NCBI RefSeq assembly: GCF_963921235.1 | Contig: NC_086097.1 | Location: 95,358,001-95,422,000, forward strand | Direction of reading: 5' to 3' | Source of the DNA: Mobula hypostoma | Taxonomy: Eukaryota | DNA: 64,000 bases | Shown here: one piece after another, positions 9,786 to 55,179 of the stretch | Position numbering within the stretch: position 1 is the stretch's first letter | Layout: each line of letters starts with the position of its first letter | Notes under the pieces: model-generated | The model's database searches: none | What the model was told of the DNA's origin: nothing | Seen by the model: the letters and a program-made list of their open reading frames with translations, nothing else | Position numbers and translations under genes: made by a program

Positions 9786-11681
9786 ATTAAAAATTGACTT
9801 ATGAATGAAGGCCTACAGAAGTGTGTTCCAAACCTTATCCCTCTATTGCTCAGAGGCATTTTCTAAAAAAAAGACCTTAGAGGCTTGGTTATAAACTTTG
9901 AGACAATGTCTTCTGGTTCAATAGGACAGGATCTGAACATTTACTCTGTCTTGAGATCCTTTGTTTTGTTTTCCATGTTCAGCCTAGATGAGGGAAGTTA
10001 AGACCATGCAAAACAAGATACATGCTGGTCTAATCAATTGAATCAGGGATCGGTGGGGGGGGGGGGGTTAAACTCAAAACAAAGATCCTGTTGTCCATAT
10101 AAACTGAATGCATTCCCAGGAATGGCTAAAGAAGGTTTAGGAGTGATGCACTTTGTGAACATTACTAGTCTGTGCCCGAGGCTCTCCAAATCACAGGCTG
10201 ATGCATTAAACATGCACAGAGGTATTTTCATACACCACCTCTTTTATTACAACAGACCAAGGTATTGGGACAATTTACAAGTATGTATGACACTCTAAGA
10301 CTAATCTTCAGTTTAGTGGAGTCAGTTCTTCAGATCTCTGAAACCATGATACTTGGTCTGAGGTCTGAGGCAACATTCTGCCGGAAGCAAAGTAAGAGAC
10401 TCAACAAACAGTTAAAAGATCCACTGCAATTTTTCTAATGCACAAGCAAATATAAATACTTCCGAAAGAGAGTTCTTCCACAACATCTCTTTGTTCAAAG
10501 CCACTTATAGTAACTCAGAAGTGGCATATTGTGTTGAAATTTTATGCTTCAGTAAAATGGAATGGCAAGTAAGTAAAATGTGATCCTGAAGAATGTGCAG
10601 ATGAGGTCACAGTTCCCCCAAAGGCTGTATTTTCAAATGAAATGTAGATACTGGCTGTGTTGTGAAGCCTTTATTCATAACATATAATCAACATTTTACC
10701 AAACAGAGAGAATTCAGGCTCCAGTTATTTGGACCCTGCAAGAATATTTCTCCCCCAAACAGTAAACATACAGAGAATTCTTTAACAGAATTCAAACATA
10801 AATGCTCTAAATTAATCCAGACTCAAGTGATTATTGTGGTAAAGGGTTCAAAAGGAGCAGAAAGTAAAAAAAAAGTTTAGGAATTTTAGGAATTAAAAAA
10901 AAGGCGATCAGCTGGAATTTTTTAATCCAAAGGGCAGCTGATCAGTGCAATAATTTACGAAGGAAAGCCATTGAGACAAACAGGATCAATGAGTTCAAGA
11001 GACAAATGCGTGATCTTCTATTGTTGTAAGTATAAAGAGGTTTAATGTGATTTCTTTCCTCCCATGGTTCTCAAAGCTTTGGTCTGCTAGAAATTCTAAC
11101 ATCGTCTGAATAGAAATAATTAGAGTGAAGGAAAATGGGTAGGGTTGTCCTATATAATGTACTTTTCTACTGATAACCATGACTTTCTTTTATTCTTCTT
11201 AAGCAATTCTCTCTCTACATTTTATCTACATCCTTGTGCCTTGACCAGTAGGCTGTCAGGTACTAAACTACTACTTGCATTTTTCCAAAGACACAGAGGG
11301 TACAGATTTAATCGCTGTAAATGCACAAAGAATTCTCGTCATTCATGTTGCTACCATTAAATAGTAATAGGAAGATTGTTCTACTCACCAGAAACATGCT
11401 TCATGCACTTAACACAGGAAGCAAATCCTAGAATTTGAAAGCATGCAGATGGGGAATAGCCAAGATGGTATCAAATATACTTTACACTACAGAGCAGGTC
11501 ACTTGGCACAACCAGCCTATGCCTAATTTTATATTTTCCTCTATTACCTCTTACTATATCCTGACTATTCCCCTCTATACCCCAGGTATATGAAATCTTC
11601 CCTTACCAAATGCAATTTCCTCCAATAATTACATTTAGCAGCAGAATACCCCACACCCTCTTCTTGATGGCCTATTTCTGA

Positions 11682-11853
11682 AACAAAACAAAATCTGAAG
11701 AACTGGAAATCCAAACAACACACACAACATGCTGGAGGAACTCAGCAGGCCAGGCAGCATCTATGGAAAAGAGTAAATAGTTGACGTTTCGACCGAAAGC
11801 CTTTTCCATAGATGCTGCCTGGTCTGCTGAGTTCCTCTAGCATGTTGTGCGTG
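11682..11853. mobile_element. Mini fold-back Penelope terminal-repeat insertion (palindromic)
   Basis: Inverted arms acacacacaacatgctggaggaactcagcagg...ctatggaaaag / cttttccatag...gctgagttcctctagcatgttgtgcgtgt; degenerate 14-bp TSD tggcctatttctga (11668-11681) / tggccttttcctga (11854-11867). Confidence 0.8.
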
Positions 11854-14756
11854 TGGCCTTTTCCTGATCTCATTTCCTATATTCCGGGATGTTTCTGATC
11901 GTGTCCACGATATCTTGAAGTGGGAAGGAGAACAGCCAGAGGTCGTGGTACATACTGGTACCAAGGACAAAAAGGAGGAGATCCTGAAAACAGACTACAG
12001 GGAGTTAGGAAAGAAGTTGAGAAGCAGGACCTCAAAGGTAGTAATCTCAGGTTGACTGCCTGTGCCACGTGACAGTGAGTATAGGAATAGAATAAGGTGG
12101 AGGATAAATGCATGGCTGAGGCATTGGGGCAGCAGGCAGGGATTCAGATTTCTGGATCATTGGGACCTCTTCTAGGGCAGGTGTGACCTGTACAAAAAAG
12201 ACGGGTTGCACTTGAATCCGAGGGAGACCAATATCCTGGCAGGAAGGTTTGCTAAGGCTATTGGGGAGAGTTTAAACTAGAATTGCTGGAGGGTGGGAAC
12301 TGAACTGAAGTGATGGAGGAAAGGGAGGTTGGCTAACAAATAGAGAAAGCTTGGAGACAGTGCGAAAGGGAGGATAGGCAGGTGACAGAGAAGGGACGCA
12401 CTCAGTCCGATGGTTTGAGATGTGTCTATTTTAATGCAAGGAGTATTATGAATAAAGCAGATGAACTTAGAGTGTGGATCAGCACTTGGAGCTATGATGT
12501 CGTGGCCATTACAGAGACTTGGGTAAAAATGGCTATTTCAAGTACCAGGCTATAGATGTTTCAGAAAGGATAAGGAGGGAGGCAAAAGAGGTGGGAGTGT
12601 GGCACTGCTGATCAGAGATAGTGTCATTGCAGCAGAAAAGGAGGAAGTCATGGAATGGTTGTCTACAGAGTCTCTGTGGGTGAAAGTTAGGAATAGGAAG
12701 GGGTCAATAACTCTACTGGGTGTTTTTTATGGACCACCCAATAGTAACAGGGACATCGAGGAGCAGACAGGGAGACAGATTCTGGAAAAGAGTAATAATA
12801 ACAGGGTTGTTGTGGTGGGAGATTTTAATTTCCCAAATATTGACTGGCATTTCCCTAGAGTGAGGGGTTGAGATGGGGTAGAGTTTGGTAGGTGTGTTCA
12901 GGAATATTTCATGACACAATATGTAGATAAGCCTACAAGAGGAGAGGCTGGACTTGATCTGGTATAGGGAAATGAACCTGGTCAGGTGTCAGGTCTCTCA
13001 GTGGGAGAGCATTTTGGAGATAATGATCATAATTTATTCTCCTTTACCATAGCACTGGAGAGGGATAGGAACAGACAAGTTAGGGAAATGTTTAATTGGA
13101 GTATGGAGAAATATGAGGCTATAAGGCAGGAATTTGGAAACATAAATTGGTAACAGATGTTCTCAGGGAAACAAACGGAAGAAATGTGGTAAATGTTCAG
13201 GGGTTATTTGTGTGGGGTTCTGCGTAGGTACGTTCCAATGTGGCGGGGAAAGAATGGTAGGGTACAGGAACCGTGGTGTACAAAGACTGTTGTAAATCTA
13301 GTCAAGAAGAAAAGAAGAGTTTACAAAAGGTTCAAAAAACTAGGTAATGATAGGAATCTAGAAGATCATAAGGCTAGCAGGAAGGAGCATAAAAATGAAA
13401 TTCGGAGAACCAGAAGGGGCCATGAGAAGGCCTCGGCGGACAGGATTAAGGAAAACCACAAGGCATTCTACAAGTATGTGAAGAGCAAGAGGATAAGACA
13501 AGACAGAATAGGACCAATTAAGTGTGACAGTGGAAAAGTGTGTATGGACCCGGAGGAAATAGCGGAGGTACTTAATGAATACTTTGCTTCAGTATTCACT
13601 ACAGAAAAGGATCTTGATGATTGCAGGGAAGACTTGCAGTGGACTGAAAAGCTTAGTCATGTAGATATTAAGGAAGAGGATGTGCTGGAGCTTTTGGAAA
13701 GCACCAAGTTGGATAAGTCACTGGGACCGGACGGGATATACCCCAGGATACTGTGGGAAGCGAGGGAGGAGATTGCTGAGTCTCTGGCAATGATCTTTGC
13801 ATCATCAATGAGGACAGGAGAGGTTCTGGAGGATTGGAGGAATGAGGATGTTGTTCCCTTACTCAAGAAAGGGAGTAGAGATAGACCAGGAAATTATAAG
13901 CCAGTGAGTCTTACTTCAGTGGTCAGTAAGTTGATAGAGAAGATCCTGAGAGGAAGGATTTATGAACATTTGGAGAGGCATAATATGATTAGGAATAGTC
14001 AGCATGGCTTTGTCAAAAGCAGGTCATGCCTTACGAGCCTGATTGCATTTTTTGAGGATGTGACTAAGCACATTGATGAAGGTAGAGCCATAGATGTAGT
14101 GTATATGGATTTCAGCAAGGCATTTGATAAGGTACCCCATGCAAGGCTTATTGAGAAAGTAAGGTGGCAGGGGATCCAAGGGGACATTGCTTTGTGGACC
14201 CAGAACTGGCTTGCCCACAGAAGGCAAAGAGTGGTTGTAGATGGGTCATATTCTGCATGAAGGTCGGTGACCAGTGGTGTACCTCAGGGATCTGTTCTGG
14301 GACACCCTACTCTTTGTGATTTTTATAAATGACCTGGATGAGGAAGTGGAGGGATGGGTTAGTAAATTTGCTGATGACACAAAGTGGAGGGATGGGGGTG
14401 TTGTGGATAGTGTGGAGGGCTGTCAGAGGTCACAACAGGACATTGATAGGATGCAAAACTGGGCTGAGAAGTGGCAGACGGAGTTCAATCTAGTTAAGTG
14501 TCAGGTGGTTCATTTTGGTAGGTCAAATATGATGGCAGAATATAGTATTAGTGGTAAGACTCTTGGCAGCGTGGAGAATCAGAGGGATCTTGGGGTCCGA
14601 GTCCATAGGACACTCAAAGCTGCCACGCAGGTTGACTCTGTGGTTAAGAAGGCATACAGTGCATTGGCCTTCTTCAATTGTGGGATTGAGTTTAAGAGCT
14701 GAGAGGTAATGTTGCAGCTATATAGGATCCTGGTCAGACACCACTTGGAATACTGT

Positions 14757-14975
14757 CAAGCAACACACATCAAAGTTGCTGGTGAACGCAGCAGGCAGCA
14801 TCTGTAGGAAGAGGTGCAGTCGACGTATCAGGCCGAGACCCTTCGTCCTGACGAAGGGGCTCGGCCTGAAACGTCGACTGCACCTCTTCCTACAGATGCT
14901 GCCTGGCCTGCTGCGTTCACCAGCAACTTTGATGTGTGTTGCTTGAATTTCCAGCGTCTGCAGAATTCCTGTTGT
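14757..14975. mobile_element. Mini fold-back Penelope terminal-repeat insertion inside CR1 ORF2
   Basis: Two inverted copies of the hammerhead-bearing end joined at cttcgtc|ctgacgaag; perfect 12-bp TSD ttggaatactgt (14745-14756, 14976-14987). Confidence 0.92.
14845..14880 (+). ncRNA. Minimal type-I hammerhead ribozyme motif
   Basis: gtc-CTGACGA-agg/cct stem II-GAAA-cGTC-gac; core intact, stem I only 3 bp here. Confidence 0.65.
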
Positions 14976-15999
14976 TTGGAATACTGTGCTCAATTCTGGT
15001 CACCTCAGTACAGGAAGGACATGGAAACCATAGAAAGTGTGCAGAGGAGATTTACTGGGGTGTTGCCTGGATTGGGGAGCATGCCTTATGAGAATAGGTT
15101 GAGTGAACTCGGCCTTTTCTCCTTGGAGTGATGGAGGATGAGAGGTGACCTGATAGAGGTGTACAAGATGATGAGAGGCATTGATTGTGTGGATAGTCAG
15201 AGTCTTTTTCTGAGGGCTGTAATGGCTAGCACAAGACGGCATAGTTTTAAGGTGCTTGGAAGTAGGTATAGAGGAGATGTCAGGGGTAAGTTCTTTTACA
15301 CAGAGAGTGGTGAGTGCGTGGAATGGGCTGCCGGCGGCGGCAGTGGAGGCAGAAACGATAGGGGTCTTTTAAGAAACTCCTGGATGGCTACATGGGGCTT
15401 AGAAAAATAGAGGGCTATGGGTAAAGCCTAGGTAGTTCTAAGGTAGGGCCATGTACAGCACAGTTTCGTCGGCCGAAGGGCCTATATTGTGCTGTAGTTT
15501 TTCTATGTTTCTATGCAAAGAAAACTTTTCTTTGGAATTTATTCATCCTTCCATGTTCTGAACTTGCTGACACAATAAAGCAGGTTGTTGATGGGCTGAG
15601 CAAAGGCTTGAACATATATCTCTCCACCCAATCAAAAAAGGGTAAGAGAAAATAAAGAAAGGCAAACGAGGTGCAGCAGAATATTACCGAAGAAGGGGGA
15701 AGATCATGAGGTTGGCAGAGGGCTGGCTGGAGTTTATTGTTTGTCGGGAAGGGGCCAAAATGAGTTTCAGTGGGGGGGGGGGGTTGCAAGGATGAAAGTT
15801 ACTAATTTACTTATATATCCCAGTCCAGTACCTCAGACACATCCTTATTGCAAGGGTGACACGAACCATTCTGCTTCACGTAAATACCTTAGAATTATTC
15901 TTTTCCACTCCGGTAAAAATTGCTTTCTAGTTGTGCAAAGCTGAGAAAAAAATCTCTGTAATACAGAGCAAAGATATTAAGCAATAAGAATCAATGTCT

Positions 16000-16590
16000 T
16001 GCCCCATCGAAACCAGGAAATATTCCTGTTTCTGCTCAATGTATGATAGCCTTTTCAACTTTATTGGCTAGGAGAGCCATTTTACTGAAGAGGAAGGATT
16101 GTAATCCACCTACTGTCTTTTATTGGCTTTCCTCCATTATGTCCTGTTTAAGTTTGGAGAAAATAAGAAGTCAGACATTCGATACATCCTTTAAATTTGA
16201 GCAAATTAGGCGACCTTTTATTCAATATTTTCATTTGATTAGATTTATTACTCTTCTAATTTTTTTTCGAAGTTTTAGATTTGATCAGAAAGTCTTTCTT
16301 TTTTTTTTCTAGTCGTATCCTCAGAATGGACTGCCCAGTCCCCTTTTTTTGTATAGTGTAGTGGGGTTTTTTTTATTCATTTAAAATTCAAAGTTTTTTC
16401 TTTCTTTTTCATGAACTAATAAGAGGAGAATTGCTATTTCCTTTTTTATTATATATTATACACAAGCTTAACACTATGTATGATTTTAATGATGTCTATT
16501 TCAATCTCTGTATTGTTACTGATTATATATATATTTGAGATAATTCTCCTTTGTATTTATGTTCCTTTTAAATCAGTAAGAAGATTAATA
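16000..16590 (+). mobile_element. 5'-truncated L1 LINE (ORF2 C-terminus + T-rich 3' UTR)
   Basis: MIAFSTLLARRAILLK.KDCNPPT..WLSSIMSCLSLEKIR...RPFIQYF is a fish-type L1 ORF2 C-terminus; 14-bp TSD with one mismatch aagaatcaat(g/a)tct at 15986-15999 and 16591-16604. Confidence 0.8.
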
Positions 16591-18155
16591 AAGAATCAAT
16601 ATCTCCAAATTAAAATACCATCTACATTAATCAGAACATAAGATGTATTTTACGTAGAATTTATGCTACTAGTGCCCACTTTGCAAGTTTGACTCAAAAA
16701 CAACCGCCACATTACTTAGTAGCTGGCATGAAGGAGGGAAAACTAAGGGATCCAAAGTGTGTGAATTAGGAGCAGAAAATAAAAGAATGTCTGAACTGTC
16801 ACAAAGTGGAAAATTAACTTATTTTCCCATGAGTGTGCAGTACTTTAAAATGGGGTGAAGAAAGTGGAAGACAAAAAGAAACACAACACAAGTTGAGGAT
16901 TAGTTCACACAACACTCTGCAGAGCAGGTAATAAAAGATATTAATCTGGAGTAAAGGGGAGAAAGCTGAATTTTTCCTTCCAGTTTTCATGAGCAAACAA
17001 ACTGTTTGAAGCGAGCTCAGCAGAGGTCACTAATGATTTAGATCCCCAGACCAAGTTAGCCAAGCTGTTCTAAACTCATTTCAAGGCTCAAGTGAAACAA
17101 TGCTGGAAGGTTGGAGGGCAAATTTTCAGGAACAATAATTAGTCTGTCTGCCTCCCATTAGTACCAGTCATTCCTGATTCCAGTTTTGCTTTAGGGCCAG
17201 TCATGGCGACGATGGATCATAAATGTACAGCTCTCAGCATTCATCTCCACTCTATTCTAACTAATAGCCTTTCATGTGGGCTGTTTATGCCTTCAACTGT
17301 TTACAAGTCAAAGGATCTGCTTCTGGGGATTTGTGAAGTTTCTTAGCTCAGACTTGCTGCTCGTAGGGTGGGTGGCGGGGCACTTAACAGTGATATCCCT
17401 GCAGTTAGTAGGGGCTCTACCACATTCTGATAAGGTCCTAATCTTAATTGATGTTCAATGGGCTGCCAAACACAAAACCAGGAATAAACACTATACATTC
17501 TGATCAGGTACCTGTTGTGACAAGCAGCCACAAGGCATTTGTTAAAAAGACCGTCATGAAATCAACACTTTTCCCATTAGAACACAACAAAATCTGTGTT
17601 GCATCAAACCTACTCTACCACTGTGAGTTTCACTGTAGCAAAGTTTCTCCAAGTGCTTCACAGGAGTGTTATCAAGTACAAGTTTGAAACCCAGGCACAT
17701 AATCAAGTATATCACAAATAAGAGTAGCCCTAATATTTCACAGAATGCTGGCAGATTCATGTGGAACCCCACAACTCCAGAAAAGTTGTGTATTTCCCAC
17801 TTGTGATCCAATGTTCGATGCTTTATACAGTCCATCAGTGGAGGGTGAATTTCTACAATTCCTTAGCACTTACACCAGGAAATCTGCTCAATAGACCTGC
17901 ATCAAATTAGATCTAGGACAGTCCATCACGGGTAAGGCCCTCCCCACCATTGAGCACATCTACACAGGAAAACGGAATCTATCATTAGGGACCACCACCA
18001 TCTAGGACAGGCTCTATTCTCACTCAAGGAGAAGGTACAGAAGCCTCAGAACTCACACCACCAGGTTCAGGAACAGTTATTACCTCTCAACCATCAGGCT
18101 CTTGAACCAGAGGGGATAACGTCACTTGCCCCATCACTGAACTGTTCCTACAACT

Positions 18156-18844
18156 GGAATTCTGCAGATGCTGGAAATTCAAGCAACACACAGAAAAGTT
18201 GCTGGTGAACGCAGCAGGCCAGGCAGCATCTCTAGGAAGAGGTGCAGTCGACGTTTCAGGCCGAGATCCTTCGTCAGAACTAACTGAAGGAAGAGCGAGT
18301 AAGGGATTTGAAAGTTGGAGGGGGAGGGGGAGATCCAAAATGATAGGAGAAGACAGGAGGGGGAGGGATGGAGCCAAGAGCTGGACAGGTGATAGGCAAA
18401 AGGGATACGAGAGGATCGTGGGACAGGAGGTCCGGGAAGAAAGACAAGGAGGTGGGGGGGGGGACCCAGAGGATGGGCAAGGGGTATATTCAGAGGGACA
18501 GAGGGAGAAAAAGGAGAGTGAGAGAAAGAATGTGTGTATAAAAATAATTAACAGATGGGGTACGAGGGGGAGGTGGGGCATTAGTGGAAGTTAGAGAAGT
18601 CGATGTTCATGCCATCAGGTTGGAGGCTACCCAGACGGAATATAAGGTGTTGTTCCTCCAACCTGAGTGTGGCTTCATCTCTCCTATCATTTTGGATCTC
18701 CCCCTCCCCCTCCAACTTTCAAATCCCTTACTCACTCTTCCTTCAGTTAGTCCTTACGAAGGGTCTCGGCCTGAAACGTCGACTGCACCTCTTCCTAGAG
18801 ATGCTGCCTGGCCTGCTGCGTTCACTAGCAACTTTTATGTGTGT
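18156..18844. mobile_element. Inverted (fold-back) Penelope-like insertion
   Basis: Minus arm 18156-18680 (end of GIY-YIG + full terminal repeat) joined to plus arm 18681-18844; 13-bp TSD tgttcctacaact (18143-18155, 18845-18857). Confidence 0.92.
18246..18281 (-). ncRNA. Minimal type-I hammerhead ribozyme motif
   Basis: Reverse complement agtt-CTGACGA-agg atctcgg cct-GAAA-cGTC-gact; intact core with GUC triplet. Confidence 0.7.
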
Positions 18845-20929
18845 TGTTCCTACAACTATAGACTCACTTTCAAAGATTCTTCATCTTATGTTCTCAATAA
18901 TTATTGCTTATCTATTTATTATTATTATTAGTTCTTTCTTTCTTTCTTTTTGTTTTTGCAGATATTGTTGTCTTCTGCTCACTGGTTGCCCACCTTGTTG
19001 GTGCGATCTTTCACTGATTCTATTATGGTTAATGGATTTATTGAGTATACCCACAAGACAATGAATCTCAGTTGTATATAGTGAGGTATACGCATGTACT
19101 TTGATAATAAATTTACTTTGAACTTTGCAAAACATAAAAAACTGTGGATGCGGGAAATCTAAAGCAAAGACAGAATACTGTGGAAATACTAGTAGGTCAC
19201 GCTACATCTGTGGGAGAAGTAGTTTATTTCCAGCATTTTCTATATCTAGTGTGGGGTCCATGAGTCCACTAATAAGAATGAAGACGAATAAAGTGATTAG
19301 AGTAAAGTAATAAAGTAAGAAGAGTGAAGCATCTACCACTTTCTAATTTATTGGCTTAATTAAAATGTTTTAATAGGTTTTACATATTTTTCACTGTGTT
19401 TAAATGTATTTTCAAACTTTTAAATCTTTATAGAATATTAAATTTGCACTAGATTTTGACTGTCAATAAAAATCAGATTCTTCAAAAGCATTAGTTTTTT
19501 CAGCAGTTGATTCAGATTAATCACCAACCAAAATATTTCAATAGAATGTACATTTTATGGTTGTGCCAGGCTTTGCTAGTCACATAGTTCATTCCTAGGG
19601 ACCCAATCAAGACTAATATGGGTTCTAACACATCACACTCAGCAGAACCCTTGAGGCATTCAGGTGGGTAAATCAAAGCTTGCTCTAAAGGAAGTTGTAA
19701 GAACTTACTTGGTGGAGAATTAAAGAGGGACTTTAAAAGATTAAGGTTAAGGTAGGTAAAGGCATTGCCTCCAAAAGTCCAGTGATTACAAAGGGAAGTA
19801 AAAGAGACTGGAATTGGACATATGTAGAGTTCAAGAACTACAGGGGGAGACAAGATCACAGAAGGATGGACAAGCTTGTTATTAAACTGAGGTGTTGTCA
19901 AAGTAGGTCGACAAGGAAAGGTATGGCATAAGTAGGATGAAACAAGTTATGATACAGATAGCAATAGTTTAGATGTTCAGGTTAATAGAGGGTACAAGGT
20001 GTTAGTCTGACTCAAGACAATGGTTCTAAATTTTCTGATAGTTAATTGAAAATAATATCCAACAGAAGAATGTGAAAATAGTTTTCAGAGCATTTCATAA
20101 TTCAATCTATTTATTGTATTTGTTACCATTCATTGAACTAGAGACCTACTAGAGCATCTAACGCATTGCAAGTTTATGGCTCATTCAAGCAGCAACCTGC
20201 CCTCGCTACCCTCATTAAACTACTTTGAAAAATGAACCAGCTTATGAACCTAGATGCTTCGTGCTCCAACATTTCACAAATTAGTCATTGATCCTGGTCT
20301 GTTGGAGGCACAAGGGATTGAGACTTATATCTTTTGAAGAAAAAGTCAATTGCGGTATCACTTGAATGTTGTTTCTTAACCATTACTGGGTCTGAATCCT
20401 TGAACTCTCACCTCACCTAAACTGCACTGTAGGAAATGTAACTACAGTGGCTCAAGTAGGTAGTTCACTACCCATCTTCTCAAGATCTATTAGAGATCAA
20501 CAATCTCTAAAGCAGTTCTCTTGTGAATGATCTCAGCTACAATACTGCCATCATTACAACTTGGAAGCCATTAATTATAGATGTTTTGTATACTTGTTTT
20601 ACCTCATACAAGAAGAAAGATTGTAGCTTTACAGAGAACTAAGTTTCTTCCATGGTGTGCACATCAAAATAAATCACAGCATCTGTGATTAAATAGCCTA
20701 TAACAACAAGACAATGTTTACCACTATTAACTGACAGATTAAATACTCCAGATACAAAATTTGTAATGTTATTCCTTATGCCAAATTTATAATCATACCT
20801 ATTGTTTCCACTGCCTTAATAGCATCCCTTGCTTTCAGCACATCCTTTCTTTCCACTTCATTTCAGACTCATTATTAGAGAATTAAAAATAGTTCCTTTC
20901 ATTCCCAGAGGATTAGATTGCAGTCCTGT

Positions 20930-38499: not shown

Positions 38500-38635
38500 C
38501 ACAAACACGTGAAAATCTACAGATACTGGAAATCCAGGACCTGGTTAATGGTCTTGGCCTGAAACACCGACTATTTAACTATTTACTCTTTTCCATAGAA
38601 CCTGCCTGACCTGCTGAGTTCCTCCAGCATTTTAT
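38500..38635. mobile_element. Old short inverted Penelope terminal-repeat remnant
   Basis: Reverse-oriented tail (aaacacgtgaaaatctacagatactggaaatc) joined to a forward degenerate hammerhead and gctgagttcctccagc. Confidence 0.6.
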
Positions 38636-39611
38636 ACAAGCTGTAATAAACATATACTGTTCAGAAACCTGATAATTCAGGCCAACTGATCTGTGCCAGA
38701 AATTCACACCAGTATTTTTCTATTCTTATCTCCTACATTCATTTTTCCAGCTTCCCTTTAAATATATCAATGCTTTTAACTTTGTATAAAGAAGTGCCCC
38801 AGAACTTACTTAGTGGATTTATTTGTTATAATTCTGAAGTTTGGTCTTCCCTATATACAATATTCTACTGGCTTTAGATATCTGCATTCTGCAAGATCAA
38901 GATCAGCAGTGACCTGATAATTTGTTGGCCAAGGAAAATATTGATTAGGACATTGGTGAGCACGTCTCCACCTTTTTAAAAGTAATGAACAAATATGCTT
39001 TATATCCTATTACATGTATACACCAGAAGGATTAGATTTCAGAAAATAACAGGATTAGCACAAATCTACCAATCCATTTCAATGCTGATCCAGTCTGAGG
39101 TGTTGACAAGGTTAACACTGGAGGAGGGGTAAGTTGTAAAACATAATAACTTGAGTGAGCAGCCAAGACTTAAGACTGGGCTGAGATTCCAAAACATCAT
39201 GTGGAATGACCCAATGAGTGTTGTCAGACTGAGTACAGAGCACACACTATATACATGAGAGCTACCCCTCAAACTTCATCTCCAGACTGAACCTCCTCCC
39301 CCTTGGTGTTCAAGAGAAGTCCTGCTCAAACAATATTAGCACACAGTTTCTTAACAGCAGCTCACTCAGAAGCATTCTTCCTATTGCCTCCATGTGCTGG
39401 GACAAAAAGCACCCAGGTGCCTTATTTTAAGAAGAGTGGAGACATTCACCAATGCCCTTAATGACAATTATCCTCAGCTAAATTACCCATTCATTGTGGA
39501 TAGTGGGACTTTGCTGTTTGCAGTTATCATAGTATTGGTTCCAATACCAAAGTGTTTTAATGGTTGTGAAATACTCTTGGATCCTACAACACAAACACAA
39601 ATACAAATACA

Positions 39612-40560
39612 AATCCCCTTTCTTGACCTTTCTGTCTCTATCTCTGGAGACAGCTTATCTACTGATGTCTACTATAAGCCTACGGACTCTCACAGCTATC
39701 TGGACTATTCCTCTTCCCACCTTATCTCTTGCAAAAATGCCATCTCCTTCTCGCAATTCCTCTGTTTCCGCCGCATCTGCTCTCAGGATGAGGCTTTTCA
39801 TTCCAGGATGAAGGAGATTTCTTCCTTTTTAAAGAAAGGGGCTTCCCTTCCTCCACCATCAACTCTGCTCTCAAACACATCTCTCCCATTTCACACACAT
39901 CTGCTCTCACCCCATCCTCCTGCCACCCAACTAAGGATAGGGTTCCCCTTGTCCTCACCTACCACCCCACCAGCCTCCGGGTCCAACATATAATTCTCCA
40001 TAACTTCCGCCACCTCCAACGGGATCCCACCACCAAGCACATCTTTCCCTCCCCGCCCTTCTGCTTTCCGCAGGGATCGCTCTCTACACGACTCCCTTGT
40101 CCATTCGTTCCCCCCCCCCATCCCTTCCCACCAATCTCCCTCCCGGCACTTATCCTTGTAAGCGAAACAAGTGCTACACATGCCCTTACACTTCCTCCCT
40201 CACCACCATTCAGGGCCCCAGACAGTCCTTCCAGGTGAGGCGACACTTCACCTGTGAGTCGGCTGGTGTGATATACTGCGTCTGATGCTCCCAGTGGGGC
40301 CTTCTATATATTGGTGAGACCTGATGCAGACTGGGAGACCGTTTCACTGAACACCTATGCTCTGTCCGCCAGAGAAAGCAGGATCTCCCAGTGGCCACAC
40401 ATTTTAATTCTATGTCCCATTTCCATTCCAATATGTCCATCCATGGCCGCCTCTACATCAAGATGAAGCCACACTCAGATTGGAGGAACAACACCTTATA
40501 TTCCATCTGGGTAGCCTCCAACCTGATGGCATGAACCTTGACTTCTCTAACTTCCGTTAA
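39612..40560 (+). mobile_element. Penelope-like element: RT C-terminus + GIY-YIG endonuclease, no terminal repeat
   Basis: PFLDLSV...TDVYYKPTDSHSYLDYSSSH...FSQFL.FRRICS; C.R.KC.TC linker; GVIYCV...LLYIGET.R.LGDRFTEH; LEEQHLIFHLGSLQPDGMN; frameshifted. Confidence 0.92.
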
Positions 40561-40879
40561 TGGATTAAAACGATGGATTAAAGTGAAGTGGATTGTAATG
40601 CCTCTTATATCAGAGAACAATAGACACACCCCAAAGGAGAAGAGCAACTATGCTCTACAAAAAGGGTATGAGGGGGAGCATCCCCCAGGGGCATTAATAA
40701 CTCTATCAATATGTGGGTGGGAATCTAAACAGGTGAGAAATGGAAAGCTTCCCAGTCAAATTTGGAGTTAGGCAAAACTGCTATCCTTCCTCTGCCTTAT
40801 TTTCATATTGAACTGAGTTTCTTGCCAAATCCATCAGGAAGTATGCCAACATTAGGGATGTGATGATGTCAGGCAACAG

Positions 40880-42185
40880 AGGAATTTGGGTCAAAACTTC
40901 TGCAGTTTTCTGCTCTGATCCACGATGGCTCCTCTCCTGCACTCAGGTACAACTGACCTCGAGCCAAAAAGAAATACAGCAGAAATAAGGTAGATTCTTT
41001 GTAAGCTGCTCTGGTGAATTCCACTGTCGTGATGAGGCAACACTTAGGTTGGAGGAACAACACCTTGTATTCCGTTTGGGTAGCCTCCAACCTGATGGAA
41101 TGAACATCAATTTCTCAAACTTCCAGTAAAGCCACTAACCCCCCCCTCACCATTTCCCATCCCTTTGTCCTTCTCTCATGTTACCTCCTTGCCCACCCAT
41201 CGCCTCCCTCTGATGCTCCTCTCCCCCCACCCACACTTTCTTCCATGGCCTTCTGTCTCTTCCACCAACCTAGATCTTTGCTTCATCCCTCCCCCTACAA
41301 GTTTCACCTATCACCTGGTGTTTCTCCTTCCCCTTCTCCCACCTTTCAAATCCACTCCTCTGCTTTTTTTCTCCAGTCCTGCCGAAGGGTTTTGGCTCAA
41401 AACGTCAACTATACTTTTCTTCCCCCATAGATGCTGCTTGGCCTGTTGAGTTCCTCCAGCATTTTGTGTGTGTTGCTCAGATTTCCAGTATCTGCAGACT
41501 TTCTCTTGTTTCTGGTGAATTCTTTGTCCACTTCACCATCAGATGACCTGATAGAGACAGGAGAATGGTTTGTAGAGCATGTACCAAGAATTGAGTGTCC
41601 AACCAAGGTGAAGCAGAATCTAGGATTAGTGCTTCTTCTCAATTATGGGAAAGAACCATATCTTGAGCTGCAAGGTTCTCTGAATGTTGCTGCTCATGGT
41701 ACAAGTGGAGAACATACATTAGTCACCCTAGTCACATTCTATTTCATCTGGAGATCAAGAATGGATCCAGAATCTACAGAGACATGATGTGCATTGTACC
41801 AGAGAAAAAGCAGGGGAGATAAGAATGCCCTGAGGCCTTCATCCGAATAGCCACCTCATTGTGGGTTGTATCCAGTTGTGTATTAACCCTGGGAAGGAAT
41901 TTGCCAAGAGTCATCATGTGCTGTCCTTGAAGCTGCCTGACCATCTTACCAAGGAATGCTCTATTCAATTGGACTGTACCAGGCCATCCATACCTTATAG
42001 CAAAGCTTGCTCTGAACATCTTTAACATCTCCAAATCAATGTCCTTGAAACTCTGTGGGAAATGGTGAATCTTGCTTGATGGTTCATCAAGCAGGCTGTC
42101 AATTTCTTGGCTGAGGCCTGATGACCACAAGGCACAATATCACATGCCTTGAAGATCTGCATTCCCTTTCACAAGACCTGCAGCC
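40880..42185 (+). mobile_element. Degraded Tx1-clade L1 ORF2 fragment
   Basis: FVHFTIR, KVKQNLGL, FYFIWRSRMD, LPRNALFNWTVP and NVLETL resemble Tx1 ORF2 motifs (FIWRSKMD, LPRNAPSSWTVP). Confidence 0.7.
41022..41510 (+). mobile_element. Penelope-like 3' fragment with complete end, non-inverted
   Basis: DEATLRLEEQHLVFRLGSLQPDGMNINFSNFQ*; degenerate hammerhead at 41374-41410; 12-bp TSD tctggtgaattc (41010-41021, 41511-41522). Confidence 0.9.
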
Positions 42186-44482: not shown

Positions 44483-44483
44483 A

Positions 44484-45399: not shown

Positions 45400-45530
45400 G
45401 ATTACAGCTGGAAGCTGCCAAGTTTGCAGTTGATATGAAGATTGATGGAGGGGCTAGTAGTGTTGAGGAAACAGGTAGGCTGCAAAAGGAGTTAAATAGA
45501 TTAGGAGAATGGGCAAAAAAGTGGCAAATG
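45400..45530 (+). mobile_element. Short CR1 RT fragment
   Basis: AKFAVDMKIDG...LQKELNRLGEWAKKWQM. Confidence 0.7.
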
Positions 45531-45534
45531 AAAT

Positions 45535-46526
45535 ACATGAAAAAGATATATGGTGTTTAGAAGCTGGTGAGAATCAGGCTGAAGTTGGCGCCTCTTTGAA
45601 ATTGGATATAGCGATGATCAGAATAATTATAAAAAATGTAGACAAGATGAAAGCTTCTGCAACAATGACCGCAAAGCTATCATCAATGAAGATGATACGC
45701 TTGAAAAAATGGAAAATAGACTAAATATATGGATGGGTGACCAAACACAACAAAACATGTGCCTAAGCCAGTTGATAATAATGGAAAAGGCAAGAAGCAT
45801 CTTCAATCATATTCAAGAAGAAGATGATGATACATCAGTAACATTCACAGCCAGTAAAGGCTGGCTTGATAGGTTCAAACAGCGCAGCAACCTCCATAAC
45901 GTATGCATCTCTGGTAATGCAGCTAATGCAGACTGCAAGAGCCTTAATAACGAAGAGCTTTGAGAATTGGCAGAACACATCCTGGGTGAATCAGAGGATA
46001 TGGATCAAGAAGAAGAAACACCAGCAAGAAACCTCACAAAATTCCTCAGCATTAGCATCACCATCACCATAATCACACATATCATTATCCAGTTTATCGA
46101 TAATGACCCTGACTGGAAGCAAAGCAATGAGACAAAGAGAGGTGTTCTCGATATGATTACCTGCTACCGAGAAATGCTTTATGAGAGGAAACTTAAGAAA
46201 ATGCAGTCAAATCTTAATGCCTACTTGGAGAAGAAGCCAAAGATACAGGAAAACCCACAGCCTGGTCCCTCCTCTAAGACGTAACCACTACTCGCTTCCC
46301 TCTGCTGCAGCTGCTGGGATGTGTTGCTGCTCCCCTGATGTACAGGATAGGCCCATCTGCCTGTTTGTCACTCCACAAATTACTATGTATACATAAAATA
46401 ATATATCATATATCACGGGTTTGATGCTTTTTAAAAAATCAGGCACACATGTCCATTTATGCAATGTTATAATACCCCCCCCCCCCCAATAGCACTGATT
46501 TACACAGTATAAGCGGGACCTGACTG
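45535..46526 (+). mobile_element. Tigger/pogo DNA transposon, internally deleted
   Basis: CENP-B-type HTH domains (LEAGENQAEVG...; MENRLNIWM.DQ...IMEKARSIF...FTASKGWLDRFKQR...ISG.AA.AD) joined directly to an acidic C-terminus; right end ataagcgggacctgactg is TIR-like. Confidence 0.85.
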
Positions 46527-48144
46527 TGTCTGGTTGAAGTCAAGCATAAGTTTGTACTGAGTATAAACATTGCACAGACCAAAAGGGACAAATGGTTATT
46601 TCTATACTGTAAATTCTGTATTTTAATATAACCGTACAAAGCTTATCCCCTGACTTTTACAATATCCTGAAATCTCCCTTCCTGAGCAACAATCTCACTG
46701 CTTCACCAATGATGACATAATCTTCAACATACTCTACAGTACTTGGTGTAATTCTCTCCTCTGATTCTATTATCCCTTCCTTTGCTGCCTTATAGCCCAT
46801 CCCTTTGAGCAGTTCTCTAGTTATTACCCCAAAACTTTCTATGTAGCAGTCAAAAGTGCAATACAAATCCAAGTCTGCTGTTTTGTAAATACCAATGGAC
46901 ACAACATCAGACTCCACTCACACAGCTGACTAGTTTGCCAACATTCATTGCTAAGGCTAGATCAAGCTGAATGCCAGATTGGGTTAGAGGTTATATTGCA
47001 GCTGTGGAGGTTCGATGCAAAGAGAGCTTGTCCTTTTAGAAGAGAAGAAAATGGTGTCAAAAGAAACTCCAGCAATATCTGTACTTTTCAAATGCAGCAC
47101 CAATTAAAGTATAGCCTGAACTGCCAGATTGTAAATTAATACAGCTGTATTACTCCCATTTCAAACATCAACAGCAGCCTATGTTTAAGTATTTCCAAAG
47201 CTGTCTAGATTGTTTCCTGTGCTCAGCCTTTGGCAAAGATACATAGGGAGGAGCAGGCACAACATTGTAAGAACAACAATCCACAAGCAGGGTATTGTAT
47301 TCACTGATTATTCCTAAGAGTTCTATGCTCAAGAATCTTTAATCGGGTCATGACACAAATAGGTACATGTCATACCTGTTCCCAAAGACAAAGTCAGAAT
47401 GTTGCTCATACCCTCAGATTACTTCACTGACTTTCCATTTCAAGATGCCAAACCTGATCCCACCAGGCATCTTATCTGGCAAAGACATCAAGTGGGCCAA
47501 TTAACTTTGTATGGTAGATTAAAGGGAAAACTTGCTATAACAGTGCTTTTCATATCCTGAGGACATTGCAAAGAATTTCAAAGCTCGTAAATTACTTTTG
47601 ATTACAAAGACCAGTGGATAGTTAAAATATGAAATAAAAGTAGCAAATACACAGCAATTCAGGCAGCATCCATGGGGGAGAAGTAAAGTTAGTATTTCAA
47701 GTGCATGTTTTTTAAGTATAGCCATTGTTCAACTGTAGGAAACATGGCAGCCAATTTACACAGAGACAATAAAACGATGATAAGGCAATAATATATTTAT
47801 TTCATTGGCTATTAACCAGAACACTGAGGAAAATGTATCATTTGGAAAGGCTGCTGCAGTTTCCAGTCCACCTTGCTATAAATGGTAGTGTTTCAAGCAA
47901 GCTAATGCGTGCATGAGAACAAATGCCACCCTTGGGATTCTGCAAGACAAGATGAGGAAATGAGTACCGAGACACCAGAGATAATTCACCATGAATAGCA
48001 ACATACACCAAAGGGAAATGGAAATATCTGCAAGATTTACAAGCTGCTTTATTTTATCATACAAAAATGCATCTTCCATGATTCCTTTTCGCTGCCCAAG
48101 AATAAATGGCAAGTAATAACTCTGAATCTGGGGAGTATTTGGAA

Positions 48145-49200
48145 TTTGAATTGATTCATTACAGTCACAGGCTCGAAGATATAGTGAGAAGCTTGTCTAA
48201 AATATTGCTCATACAGATCAATTTGTTACACAGTGCATTGAGGTAGCACAAGGTAAAACAAAACAGAATGCAAAATAAAGTATAACAGCTACGGAGAAAG
48301 TGCAGTGCAGGTAGACAATTAGGTGCAAGGTCATAACAAGGTAGATTGTGAGCGCAAGAGTCCTTCTTATCCTACTAGCAATCATTCAATAGTCAGGCGT
48401 TGTACCTTCTGTCGAATAGGTGAGGGGAGAAGAGAGAAGGGAGATGGGTCTTTGATTATGCTGGCTGCTTTACTGAAGTAGTGAGAGGTATAGACAGAGA
48501 CCATGGAAGGGAGGCTGGTTTCTGAGATGTGCTGAGCTGTGTACGCAACTCTTGGCAACTCCTTGCAGTCATGGGCAGAGCTGCATTAAGCCGTGAAGCA
48601 CCCAGATAGGATGCTTTCCATAGTGTCTCAATAAAACCTGGTGAGGATCACTGGGGACATGCCAAAGTTCTTTAGCCTCTTAAGGAGGTGTAAGTGTTGC
48701 TGAGTTTTATTGGCCATGGCCTTGGCATTGTTGGACCAGTACAGTCTGTTTGTGATGTTTACTCCAGGAGCTTAAAGCTCTCAACCCTCAGCACTGTTGA
48801 CATAGACACAAGCATGTTACTGCTCCCCTTTCCGAAATCAATGATGAGCTGTTTTGCATTGTTGATATTGAGGAAAAAGTTGTTTTTATGACACCATGTC
48901 ACGATTGCCTTCCTGTACTGTGACTCATAATTATTTGAGATACAGCCCACTACAGTGGGATCAATTGCAAACTGGTAGATTGAGGTAGAGCTGTAACTGG
49001 TCATGCAGTCATGAGTATATGGGGAGTAGAGAAGAGCTTGAGGAGGCAGTCTTGTGGAGCAGCAGTGTTTAGAATAATAGTGGCAAAGGTGTTGCTGCAT
49101 ATCCTTAACGACTGTAGTATTTTGGTTTCAGAAGTCATGGATCCAGTTGCAAAGGGAGGTGTTCCTTACCAGGTCTCAGAGTTTAGTGATGAGTTTGCTT
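48145..49200 (-). mobile_element. Degraded Rex1/Babar 3' fragment
   Basis: LLYSPYTHDC...IYQFA.D.TVVG.ISN...LIIDFGK...VESFKLL on the minus strand. Confidence 0.8.
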
Positions 49201-50243
49201 GGTCTCTTTTCCACCAATTAGTGATAATTATCAGGAGTGCTCAGTACACAGAGCCCATAGCATTGTCAGTGATTCTTCAGCACTTGACACAGAAAGGAAA
49301 AACGTGTTTTACCTTATATTTGCTAGCTGCTTCAGTCTTGCCTGTGGTGATTGCTCCATAATTGCTACATTAATTCGAGACTGGGGTAATTTTTTTGTAA
49401 TCACACCTTTGTATTTTCTCCACCAACTTTACTGAAGGGGCTCAGTTACATTAATATCTATGACTAAGGTATCTGATTATCAGTTAAATCTGCAGTGGTA
49501 GTGGTGGTTGAGGGGGGCATTTCAGCTGAACCAAAAAGAATTCTTAACCCTCCCATACTGCTTAGTGTCCATGAAATAAACATTTAAATTTCTGCTATGG
49601 GCAATCAGAGGAGAAATTCTCAGGACCATTGGCACAAAATTTTCATTGATTTGGTTAGAACACAAACCAAATTTGCTTTGCTTATTCACCAATATTGCAA
49701 GTTAAAGGAAGACTCCCAATGAACAAAATTTCAATTTATTTTCCGATCAGCGAAACTAGACAGGGCTACAAGGTTGGAGCTGTTAGCAAACCAAAGGCTG
49801 AACGAAAAATGTTTTGGGGTTTGGGAGTGGGCAATCATATAGCGAAATCTCCCACAAAATGATTGTGCCGAGCTGATAATGGCAAAATTCCAATGCATAA
49901 CAACATTTACAGCTAAATAATAAATTCAACTGTTCAATTAAGAATCAATAAAATTATTATACTGTATTCCATTTGCACCATTTTAAGCTCAGGTGTCATA
50001 TTCTTGCTGTTTCTCAAATCAACCCTGATTTTACTGCTCCACTATTTGTGATCTGGCCTAAAGACCAGACTCAGAAATGCCTTCTCTAAACCTTTCCATT
50101 TTTCATTTTTCTCCATTTGCAGAATTGCAGAGAGTTGCAAATACAGCCCAGTCCATTACGAAAACCAGCGTCCCCTTCATTGAACACACATAAAAGTTGC
50201 TGGTGAACGCAGCAGGCCAGGCAGCATCTCTAGGAAGAGGTAC

Positions 50244-50279
50244 AGTCAACGTTTCGGGCTGAGACCCTTCATCAGGACT
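50244..50279 (-). ncRNA. Minimal type-I hammerhead ribozyme motif
   Basis: Reverse complement agtc-CTGATGA-a-ggg tctcag ccc-GAAA-cGTT-gact; NUH triplet GUU. Confidence 0.7.
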
Positions 50280-50919
50280 AACTGAAAGAAGAGCTAGTAA
50301 GAGATTTGAAAGTGAGAGGGGAAGGGATGGGGTACGAGGGGGAGGTGGGGCATTAGCAGAAGTTAGAGAAGTCAATGTTCATGCAATCAGGTTGGAGGCT
50401 ACCCAGACGGAACATAACGTGTTGTTCCTCCAACCTGAGTGTGGCTTCATCTTTACAGTAGAGGAGGCCGTGGATACACATATCAGAATGGGAATGGGAC
50501 GTGGAATTAAAATGCGTGGCCACTGGGAGATCCTGCTTTCTCAAGCGGACAGAGCATAGGTGTTCAGTGAAAGGATCTCCCAGTCTGCGTCGGATCTCGC
50601 ATTGACTTCTCAAACTTCCGCTAATGCCCCACCTCCCCCTTGTACTCTATCTGTTATTTATTTATATACATACATTATTTTTCTCTCTCTCCTTTTTCTC
50701 CCTCTGTCCCTCTAACTATACCCCTTGCCCATCCTCTGGGCTCTCCCCCCCCCTTTTCTTTCTCCCTAGGCCTCCCATCCCATGATCCTCTCATATTCCT
50801 TTTGCCAATCACCTGTCCAGCTCTTGGCTCCAACCCTCCCCCTCCTGTCTTCTCCTATCATTTTGGATCTCCCCCTCACTCTCCCACTTTTAAATCTCCT
50901 ACTAGCTCTTCTTTCAGTG

Positions 50920-50955
50920 AGTCCTGACGAAGGGTCTCGGCCCGAAACGTCGACT
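50920..50955 (+). ncRNA. Minimal type-I hammerhead ribozyme motif (best preserved copy)
   Basis: agtc-CTGACGA-a-ggg tctcgg ccc-GAAA-cGTC-gact; stem I agtc/gact, palindromic ACGT in place of stem III. Confidence 0.75.
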
Positions 50956-52696
50956 GTACCTCTTCCTAGAGATGCTACCTGGCCTACTGCGCTCACCAGC
51001 AACTTTTATGTGTGTTACTTGAAATTCCAGCATCTGCAGATTTCCTCGTGTTTGCGTCCCCTTCATTGACTCCAACTATAATTTACACTGCCTTGGAATG
51101 TAACCAACATTATCAAGGACTCTTCTCTTCCCATCCTGGTCATTCGCTCTTCTCTCCTCTCACTTAGGGCATAAAATACAAAAACCTAAGAGCATGAACC
51201 ACTAGACTGAAGCACTGTTATCAGATTCTTGAACAAACCTCCTACGTTAAAAGATGAACTCTCAATCTCCAAATCTACCAAATCATGAGCCTTGTACTTT
51301 ATTTGTCTACCTGCCCTGCACCGTAACTGTGGCTAGATTCTGCATTTTGTTTCTCTTTTTATTACCTCAATGTTACATGCATAGAATGATCTGTCTGGTT
51401 GGCATGCCAAGAAAATCTTTCTCACTGTATCTCAGTACATGTGACGATAATAAACCAATACAATTCAACTCACCTCACCAGTTTTAAAAAAGCTTTGGGG
51501 TACCTGTCCTAATACATCCTTATGCAGTGTGATGTCAATTTTCCTTTAAAACATATTGGGATATGTTGCATTTACAAAGCACCATTTAACATTGTAAAAT
51601 GCTACAGTTATGTACATTTCCTTAATAAATAATTAAATATATATTGAGACATTGCACAAGTCCCTAGGATTGTGCAGCATTGAAAGAGAGTGTATCAGCA
51701 TTCATAGTAGTTTTGCAAGCTATGTAATTACAGTAGATTCTGGCTAATTGGACCATTAGTTAATCGAGGCAGCCACTTACAGTGCCTTTAAGAAGTATTC
51801 ACCCCCTCCCCCATTGGAAGTTTTCTTGTTTTATTGTTTTACAACATTGAATCACAGCGGATTTAATTTGGCTTTTTTGACACTGATCAACAGAAAAAGA
51901 CTCTCGTATCAAAGTGAATACAGATCTCAACGAAGTGATCTAAAGTAATTACAAATATAAAAACACAAAATAATTGAGTCCATAATTATTGACCCCTTTA
52001 ATATGACACACCAAATCATCACTGATGCAGCCAATTGGTTTTAGAAGTTACATAATTAGTTAAGCTATCCTAGCTACCTATGCTTAGTCAAGGTGTTTCA
52101 AATGATTGTAGTAAAAATACACCTGCATTTGGAAGGTCCAACTGCTGGCGAGCCAGTATTCTGGTAAAAACGACATCATGAAGACAAAAGAACACTCCAA
52201 GCAACTCCATGAAAAGGTTATGAAAGCATAACTCAGGACATGATACACGAAAATTTCCAAGTTACTGAATATCCCTTAGTGTACAGTTAGAATATGGTGC
52301 AACTGAAAACCTGCCTAGAGCAGGCTGTCCTCAAAACCTGAGTGACCAGTTGCAAGAAGCAGTTCACCAGTTATAACTTTATGGGAGAGTGGCAAAGAGA
52401 AAGCCACTGATGAAAAAAACTTACATGAAATGAATTTGCCAGAAGGCATGTGGGAGACTCTGAAGTCAGCTGGAAGAAGGTTCTATGGTCTGATAAAACT
52501 AAAATTGAGCTTTTTGGCCATCAGATTAAACACTATGTTTGGCATAAGCCAAACACCACACATCATCAAAAATATACCATCCTTCCTGTGAAGTACGGTG
52601 ATGGTTGCATCATGCTGTGGGGATGCTTCACTGCAGCAGGCCCTAGATGGTTTGTGAAGGTAGACGGTAAAACCAATGCAGCAAAATACAGGCAAA

Positions 52697-54285
52697 GCAA
52701 CACGCACAACACGCTGGAGGAACTCAGCGGGTAGGGCAGCATCTGTGGAAATGAACAGTCAACGTTTCGGGCCGGAACCCTTCATCGGGACTGAAGAGGG
52801 AAGGGGCAGAGGGCCTATAAAGAAGGTGGGGGGGGGGAGGGTGGGAAGGAGAAGGCGGGTAGGTGCCAGGTGAAAAACCAGTAAGGGGAAAGACAAAGGG
52901 ATGGGGGAGGGGAAGCAGGGAGGTGATAGGCAGGAAAGGTGAAGAAGGAATAGGGGAAAGCACAATGGGTAGTAGAAGGAGGCGGAACCAAAAGGGAGGT
53001 GATAGGCAGCTGGAGGAGGGGGCAGAGTGAAACTGGGATGGAGGAAGGGAGGGGGAGGGAATTACCAGAAGTTGGAGAAACCAGTGTTCATGCCCAGGGG
53101 CTGGAGACTACCCAGACGGTATTATAAGGTGTTGCTCCTCCAACCTGAGTTTGGCCTCATCATGGCAGTAGAGGAGGCCATGTATGGGAAGATCGTGGTT
53201 TCCCTTCTGCCATCTTCAATGATGCCCTCACCCGCATCTCCTCCATTTCCCGCACTTCAGCCCTCACCCCATCCTCCCGTCACCACAACAGGGACAGAGT
53301 TCCCCTTATCCTCACCTACCACCCTACCAGCCTCCGAATCCAGCACATTATCCTCCGCAACTTCCGCCACCTTCAACAGAACCCCACCACTAAGCACATC
53401 TTTACCCTCTTTACCCCTCTCCACTTTCCGCAGGGATTGTTCCATCCGCCATTCCCTGGTCCACATGTCCCTCACCACGGATCTCCCACCTGGCACTCAT
53501 CCCCGTAAGCTGTCCCTACACCTCCTCTCTCACCACTATTCAGGGCCCCAAACAGTCCTTCCAGGTGAGGCAACACTTCACTTGCGAGTCTGTTGGGGTC
53601 ATCTATTGCATCCGGTGCTCACGGTGCGGCCTCCTCTACATCGGTGAAACCCGACACAGATTGGGGGACCGCTTTGTCGAGCACCTCCGCTCCGTCCATC
53701 ACAACAGACAGGATCTCCCGTTTGCCACCCACTTCAACTCTGCTTCACATTCCCATTCGGATATGTCCATACATGGCCTCCTCTACTGCTATGATGAGGC
53801 TAAACTCAGGTTGGAGGAGCAACACCTTATATACCATCTGGGTAGTCTCCAGCTCCTTGGCATGAACATTGAATTCCCCAACTTACGGTAATTCCCTCCC
53901 CCTCCCTTCAGCCATCTCAGTTTCACTCTGCCCCTCCCCCAGCTGCCTATCATCTCCCTCTTGGTTCTGCCTCCTTCTACTACCCATTGTGCTTTCCCCT
54001 ATTCCTTCTTCACCTTTCCTGCCTATCCCCTCCCTGCTTCCCCTCCCCAACCCCTTGATCTTTCCCCTTACTGGTTTTTCACCTGGCACCTACCTGCCTT
54101 CTCCTTCCCACCCTCCCCCCATCTTCTTTATAGGGCCCTTGCCCCCTCCCTCTTCAGTCCTGATGAAGGGTCTCGGCCCAAAATGTCGACTGTTCGTTTC
54201 CACGGATGCTGCCCTACCTGCTGAGTTCCTCCAGCGTGTCGTGCGTTTTGCTTTGACCCCAGCATCTGCAGAGTACTTTGCGTTT
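52697..54285. mobile_element. Inverted (fold-back) Penelope-like insertion, distinct subfamily, inside the Tc1 transposase
   Basis: Minus arm 52697-~53187, plus arm ~53188-54285 with GIY-YIG ORF 53565-53891; 14-bp TSD aaaatacaggcaaa (52683-52696, 54286-54299); mutated hammerheads at 52756-52793 (-) and 54155-54192 (+). Confidence 0.93.
53545..53891 (+). pseudogene. GIY-YIG endonuclease domain of a Penelope-like element (open but 5'-truncated)
   Basis: FTCESVGVIYCIRCSRCGLLYIGETRHRLGDRFVEH...HFN...LEEQHLIYHLGSLQLLGMN. Confidence 0.88.
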
Positions 54286-55179
54286 AAAATACAGGCAAAT
54301 CCTGGAGGAAAACTTAATGCAGTCTGCAAGAGAACTGCAACTTGGGAGAAGATTTGTTTTCCAGCAAGACAAAGACTCCAGGCATAAAGCCAAAGCTACA
54401 CAGGAATGGCTTAAAAACAACAAAGGTAATAAGTCAGCGTCCAGACCTCAATCCAATTGAGTATTTGTGGCTGTTGAAAAGGGCTGTTCACTCATGATCC
54501 CCATGCAATCTGGCACAGCTTGAGCAGTTTTGTAAAGAAGAATGGGGAAAAATTGAAGTGTCCAGATGTGCAAAGCTGATAAGAGCCCTATCCACAGAGA
54601 CTCAAGGCTGTAATTGCTGTCAAAGATGTAGCTACTAAATACTGACTTGAAGGGGGTGAGTAAGTATGCAATCAGTTATTTTGTGTTTAATATTTGTAAT
54701 AAGTTTAGACCAATTTATACATATATGTTTTTCTCTTTGACACAAAAGAGCCTTTTCTGTTGATCAGTGTCAAAAAAGCCAAATTAAATCCACTGTGATT
54801 CAATGTTGTCAAACAATAAAACATGAAAACTTCCAAGGGTGGTGAATACTTTCTATAGGCATTGTATTTGGGACAACTCTTAAAGAACAAAAACTAATCA
54901 AGAAAATAACCTGGATTCCCTTCGTTTACTTGGGACACTATGACACTTAGTTGGGTCAGGAGACTGTCGCTGAACAGCTTCTAACTGGCTACAGTTGCAT
55001 GCGCTTGTGTGGCTGTTAGACATTACACCTTGTTAAGAATGAACAATTTTTAAACAGCATCAGTTTGGGTTCAAAACGCAGCAATATTTGTCACTAATAG
55101 TTGGCAATAAATAAGCAGTAAGACTATTCAGAACTGTTTTGTTCATTGTGGTTTCAAGTATTCAGGCTTGGAGCTATAG

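Follow-up and report, generated by a model that had tools for sequence, protein, structure and literature searches.

One-tailed inverted insertions of a Penelope-like element in a ray genome, and their possible origin in priming from both target strands

Endonuclease-bearing Penelope-like elements (PLEs) are defined, in the available text of PMC8557442, by a GIY-YIG domain, by pseudo-long terminal repeats (pLTRs) that may be direct or inverted, and by an optional 30–40-nt tail. Such elements also have a telomerase-like reverse transcriptase upstream of the endonuclease and, when full-length, are organized as partial tandems (pLTR-ORF-pLTR). A complex insertion layout has been published in which an inverted pLTR and a target site duplication (TSD) are accompanied by a 30–40-nt tail on one end (PMC3846280; PMC8557442, available sections), and the origin of such inverted one-tailed insertions is disputed, with self-priming, endonuclease resolution, and two-site initiation each having been proposed. 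Here we examine five fold-back insertions of this kind in 64,000 nt of the forward strand of the ray Mobula hypostoma (GCF_963921235.1, NC_086097.1:95,358,001–95,422,000; hereafter, the window), and we consider it probable that they arose through priming by both cut target strands at two neighboring internal sites of the element RNA.

Two described systems serve for comparison. In vitro, the Poseidon protein of Anolis carolinensis cleaves and extends both target strands, and reverse transcription begins at two adjacent internal RNA sites that bound a 30–40-nt tail (PMC11167929, accessible portion). In twin priming by the L1 retrotransposon, as described in the accessible part of bioRxiv 10.1101/2024.08.27.596794, the poly(A) and a chance internal site serve as priming sites, and the resulting segments are mostly adjacent, with duplications in 17% (median, 22 bp). 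The insertions described here share with Anolis Poseidon a hammerhead and, after it, two end points delimiting a 30–40-nt tail, but they appear to be of the Neptune type and have GT-rich ends; moreover, the available text of PMC11167929 contains neither a model for inverted copies nor a strand-specific pairing of sites.

The five insertions (E1, 11682–11853; E2, 14757–14975; E3, 18156–18844; E4, 50184–51053; E5, 52697–54285) each consist of two 3′ portions of one repeat in opposite orientation, with both 3′ ends pointing outward and a single direct repeat, the TSD, framing the pair. This arrangement had been proposed in a preliminary description of the window, and arm alignment together with TSD calls bears it out (Table 1). 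The TSDs measure 12–16 bp, compared with 8–10 bp in the rotifer examples (PMC3846280; PMC8557442, Fig. 2 legend), and all are exact apart from that of E1, which has two mismatches. Among 5000 random position pairs, an exact repeat of at least 12 within 5 nt of both boundaries was encountered once, and a repeat of at least 14 with up to two mismatches five times. At least three subfamilies had been suspected, and three are present: A (E1), B (E2–E4), and C (E5), with identities of 71–82% between subfamilies and 86–94% inside the E2–E4 group. In every case the two arms duplicate the same terminal sequence, over 53–491 bp, and at the center they overlap by 3 nt in E1 and E2, 1 nt in E3, and ~1 nt in E4. 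Compared with published complex PLE insertions, both arms are short and 5′-truncated, there is no direct tandem, and the copy number is very high.

A tail of 28–38 nt is present on a single arm only in all five fold-backs (excess at the 3′ end of 36–37 nt in E1, 29–30 in E2, 28–30 in E3, 37–38 in E4, and 30–34 in E5), so the asymmetry that had been reported stands; its description as fixed does not, since in the alignment the short ends spread over ~8 nt around a GT tract and the long ends over ~9 nt, with E3 stopping early. The arm ends are thus clustered rather than fixed. When TSDs were called and arm ends tabulated across the window, as the preliminary description had proposed for the whole genome, five mixed pairs and no long/long or short/short fold-back were found, which would have a probability of at most 0.031 if arms chose their ends independently; this is suggestive, at n = 5, of a strict rule of one long and one short end. 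At each of the five short ends, the beginning of the TSD matches the continuation of the template, by 1, 1, 2, 1, and 4 nt in E1 to E5, and no poly(A) was found at the long ends of the five insertions. The tail-less arm is nested within the tail arm in E1, E2, E3, and E5. E4 is the exception: its tail-less arm extends ~220 nt further 5′ than its tail-bearing partner, into the endonuclease region, so that neither arm is a plain copy of the other, and it also has an internal deletion of ~220 bp at 50326 that the partner lacks.

Several observations support the view, already put forward for these fold-backs, that each is a single integration event. Paralogs of the host repeats within the window span the insertion sites of E2, E3, and E4 with a single TSD copy, and rejoining the flanks of E5 with one copy restores an open frame of 99 codons, which two copies break; the same reading-frame test is uninformative for E2 because 12 bp preserves the frame, and the window contains no paralog across the E1 site. 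In addition, the two arms of an insertion are never from different subfamilies, and arm pairs share variants that are missing from other subfamily B copies (two sites in E2, three in E3, and two in E4), while differing from one another at 2/86, 6/143, and 13/143 bases, respectively. Older repeats seem to host all five fold-backs. The E5 host is a DNA transposon (51808–54842) with inverted ends of 90 bp (51808–51897 and 54753–54842) that are 94% complementary. Pfam gave no name to four short pieces of host repeat, and the assignments of the E2 long interspersed element (LINE) to CR1, of the E5 transposon, by its motifs, to a Tc1-like element, and of other host sequence to an L2-like element are therefore presumptive.

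In light of this geometry and of the in vitro data in PMC11167929, the fold-backs are best read as products of priming by both strands, probably at two sites inside the RNA. Specifically, the endonuclease would cut the two target strands 12–16 nt apart, the staggered nicks leaving two 3′-OH ends, as expected of target-primed reverse transcription. One 3′ end would prime at a distal RNA site and give rise to the tail arm; the other, assisted by 1–4 nt of pairing with the RNA, would prime at a proximal, GT-rich site and give rise to the tail-less arm, with the two internal start sites lying ~30–38 nt apart on the element RNA. Both cDNAs would then terminate early and join via 1–3 nt of microhomology, and repair would complete the TSD. 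Since one terminal sequence is present in both arms, its template would have to be read twice, and the shared stretch might be copied by displacement synthesis or from a transcript in which two terminal repeats stand in tandem; the long/short pairing would likely result from both primers engaging one RNA. Consistent with this proposal, the observed tails agree in length with the published 30–40-nt tail, and the short-end matches to the TSD are what primer pairing would give. [quoted passage not shown]

The proposed route resembles L1 twin priming in that both nicks would prime on RNA, and in the inverted 5′ part, the central microhomology, and the one TSD, of which a single TSD and junction microhomology (E1–E4) are directly visible in the window. 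Unlike the L1 case, there is no poly(A) primer, the ends are clustered, and the arms overlap, by the 53–491 bp given above, rather than lie adjacent in all five insertions. Adjacent segments as in L1 occur only in a doubtful sixth fold-back at 38500–38637, in which the two segments do not overlap, ~4 nt of microhomology joins them, the sense repeat starts at the hammerhead edge, and the right end has decayed.

A number of observations weigh against priming from both strands as we have described it. In the available text of PMC11167929, no difference in start sites was seen between the top strand and the bottom one, and the start sites were not homologous to the cut DNA; furthermore, the element studied there belongs to the Poseidon clade and has AC-rich sites, whereas those considered here are GT-rich. 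The single-arm copy at 41022–41510 shows that a non-inverted insertion, with no inverted arm, is an ordinary outcome. RNA folding of the five terminal regions was no better than that of shuffled sequences (z from +1.1 to −1.7). In a survey of matching contigs, no pile-up at the short end was found among the six loose-end rows listed per run (2527 further rows exist). Finally, only five fold-backs are available, and several of their features fit another explanation comparably well, as considered below.

It is tempting to extend the argument and suppose that twin priming is the default, programmed route in this Neptune-type family. A protein dimer would hold one RNA and offer two fixed start sites, a separate one for each target strand; displacement of the proximal cDNA by the distal would then result in the strict one-tail rule, and the arm at 38500 that consists of the tail alone would represent a failed displacement. 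We offer this extension tentatively, and regard it as rather less probable than its being wrong.

The strongest alternative, although on balance we find it unlikely, is that only one strand primes on the RNA. The truncated first cDNA would fold back on a micro-palindrome and serve as its own template; synthesis would end near the GT tract, and joining to the remaining target end would leave a tail-less inverted arm. Self-priming from palindromes at inverted junctions was proposed in the Discussion of PMC3846280, and the nesting of the tail-less arm in four of the five insertions is as this snap-back predicts, as is the center of E2, a near-perfect hairpin with a 3-bp stem and a 2-nt loop at a natural micro-palindrome; in E1, the 3-nt overlap would enclose a 29-nt loop. 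The arms are sister copies, and the variants that they share fit snap-back just as well as priming from both strands. E4, which is not nested, argues against it, although a later central deletion could account for this arrangement, and so do the non-overlapping arms of the doubtful case at 38500. Self-copying offers no reason to halt 28–38 nt short each time, whereas the accessible part of PMC11167929 maps a start site to the inner boundary of the tail and describes extension of both strands.

A second alternative, suggested in the available text of PMC8557442, is that the initial product is an inverted, symmetric intermediate, one end of which is then trimmed or resolved by the endonuclease, so that the tail is left on one side. 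We judge this improbable: in vitro, the starts of reverse transcription map to both boundaries of the tail (PMC11167929, accessible portion), and the overlap of the short end with the start of the TSD in all five insertions is expected of primer pairing. That the fold-backs are instead two independent back-to-back insertions, or inversions created by assembly, might be entertained for a family this abundant in which no contig, in four runs, bridges a whole element by 31 letters on each side, but this explanation is largely refuted and its chance is very slight, because one TSD spans both arms, the host sites rejoin cleanly with one TSD copy, and the arms share subfamily and variants yet differ from each other, unlike mirror reads.

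The census of the window places the fold-backs in context. Of the copies in the window, 10 are insertions with a terminal repeat and one is a fragment that lacks it; fold-backs make up 5 of the 10 (6 if the doubtful case is counted) and 5 of the 6 insertions bounded by a TSD, the sixth being the single-arm copy, so that within the window the claim that they are common holds. No TSD was found at 4280–4931, 5017–5536, 39615–40562, 55182–55262, or 38500–38637, nor for a long/long pairing of 38500 with 41511. The first four of these are single-orientation fragments of the same PLE. Many copies of the family seem to start at the hammerhead 5′ edge, which lies at 50920–50922 in E4; three in the window do so, at 14845, 38535, and 55182.

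Surveying contigs with an 801-bp query (50600–51400) returned 122,508, 107,984, 42,253, and 25,767 matching contig records in four runs, indicating that the family has a very high copy number. Loose contig ends pile up at 51054 in all four runs (301, 224, 233, and 298 contigs), partly through censoring because the reference element stops there; in all four they open with the same three letters, which suggests that the template extends beyond the long end. Long loose ends of low agreement also occur before 50921–50922 (343 and 285 in run X1), as copies starting at the hammerhead edge would give, although divergence of other subfamilies upstream explains them in part. One opposite-strand joint was present among the 15 listed (146 further rows exist). 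Pattern scans for relatives gave no match in viral and prokaryote contigs, and 114 metagenome matches were set aside as chance (best BLAST E, 0.01).

Judged by its sequence features, the element is an endonuclease-bearing PLE, as the preliminary description had it: a GIY-YIG remnant, an inverted terminal repeat with a hammerhead motif, the 28–38-nt tail, a C-X4-C-X2-C linker, and ray homologs all point in this direction. The E5 remnant matches Pfam PF01541 with E = 2.5e-4 and 21.7 bits, just under the curated cut-off of 22.6; its translation has two cysteine residues within the GIY-YIG motif and histidines downstream, and it is 85% identical to ray proteins. The closest named proteins (20 matches among 69 candidates) are ray proteins, from Hypanus and Mobula, with up to 85% identity, and none of the 20 is full-length. 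The window likewise contains no full-length copy, and the five insertions contain no reverse transcriptase (RT) core. The fragment at 39615–40562 includes an RT-thumb region, and ray proteins 78–85% identical to it carry RT motifs (P0018, RVT_1, E = 1.1e-4). The linker is intact in this fragment and in the ray homologs and degraded in E5. According to the accessible part of PMC8557442, a CX2-5CxxC linker between RT and endonuclease is found in Neptune and Nematis but not in Penelope or Poseidon; the element is therefore probably of the Neptune or Nematis type, and we call it Neptune-type on the basis of the linker. PLE endonuclease or RT pieces also lie inside four ray gene models (P0003, P0018, P0019, and P0020, named as ULK1, ABHD14A, chitinase-domain, and kinase-domain genes), reflecting either exonization or annotation error.

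The putative hammerhead, present in most arms, resembles the minimal type described for PLE terminal repeats in the available text of PMC4209133, with a short helix I, an extra base preceding helix II, and a palindromic core where helix III would otherwise be. In an alignment of 15 window copies, 90.5% of cells are paired and no two-sided covariation was detected; an Rfam search of 50000–55500 gave no hammerhead match.

Table 1. Positions of the fold-back insertions and related PLE copies in the window
Feature	Position	Strand	Remarks
E1 left TSD copy	11668..11681	+	14 bp, 2 mismatches to right copy
E1 tail-bearing arm, subfamily A	11682..11803	-	tail ~11682–11718
E1 tail-less arm	11801..11853	+	3-nt overlap with partner at center
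E1 right TSD copy	11854..11867	+	
E2 left TSD copy	14745..14756	+	12 bp, exact; within LINE encoding reverse transcriptase
E2 tail-less arm, subfamily B	14757..14847	-	
E2 tail-bearing arm	14845..14975	+	begins at hammerhead 5′ edge; tail ~14946–14975
E2 right TSD copy	14976..14987	+	
E3 left TSD copy	18143..18155	+	13 bp, exact
E3 tail-bearing arm	18156..18680	-	525 bp, to end of GIY-YIG coding region; tail ~18156–18185
E3 tail-less arm	18680..18844	+	165 bp, 96% identity with partner
E3 right TSD copy	18845..18857	+	
Doubtful sixth fold-back	38500..38637	.	inverted tail only (35 nt) and tail-less sense terminal repeat
Subfamily B coding fragment	39615..40562	+	RT thumb, C-X4-C-X2-C linker, GIY-YIG; terminal repeat absent; used for clade assignment
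Single-arm control copy	41022..41510	+	full tail; exact 12-bp TSD, 41010–41021/41511–41522
E4 left TSD copy	50168..50183	+	16 bp, exact
E4 tail-less arm	50184..50600	-	
E4 tail-bearing arm	50600..51053	+	tail ~51016–51053
Putative minimal type I hammerhead motif, E4 example	50920..50955	+	alignment inspection; predicted cut after 50951
E4 right TSD copy	51054..51069	+	
E5 left TSD copy	52683..52696	+	14 bp, exact; within DNA transposon
E5 tail-less arm, subfamily C	52697..53187	-	491 bp
E5 tail-bearing arm	53189..54285	+	~1.1 kb; tail ~54252–54285
GIY-YIG endonuclease coding remnant in E5	53508..53891	+	Pfam PF01541; two cysteines inside motif
E5 right TSD copy	54286..54299	+	

The fold-backs are well-formed examples, in a ray genome, of an insertion layout that is already published. 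The novelty first attributed to a one-sided tail on an inverted pLTR was therefore overstated (PMC3846280; PMC8557442, available sections), and because the layout is known, the window does not introduce an element of a new kind. The possibly new part is the strict long/short pairing: neither such a rule nor twin priming named for PLEs was found in the literature searched, which did not include reviews from 2005 and 2006 that possibly contain them, and the available portions of bioRxiv 10.1101/2024.12.14.628481 and 10.64898/2026.07.22.740005 hold nothing further on tails. The value of the window is a practical one: a young and very abundant family whose TSD-bounded insertions are mostly fold-backs offers thousands of natural products in which pairing and nesting can be counted, and such counts could separate priming by both target strands from snap-back without work at the bench.

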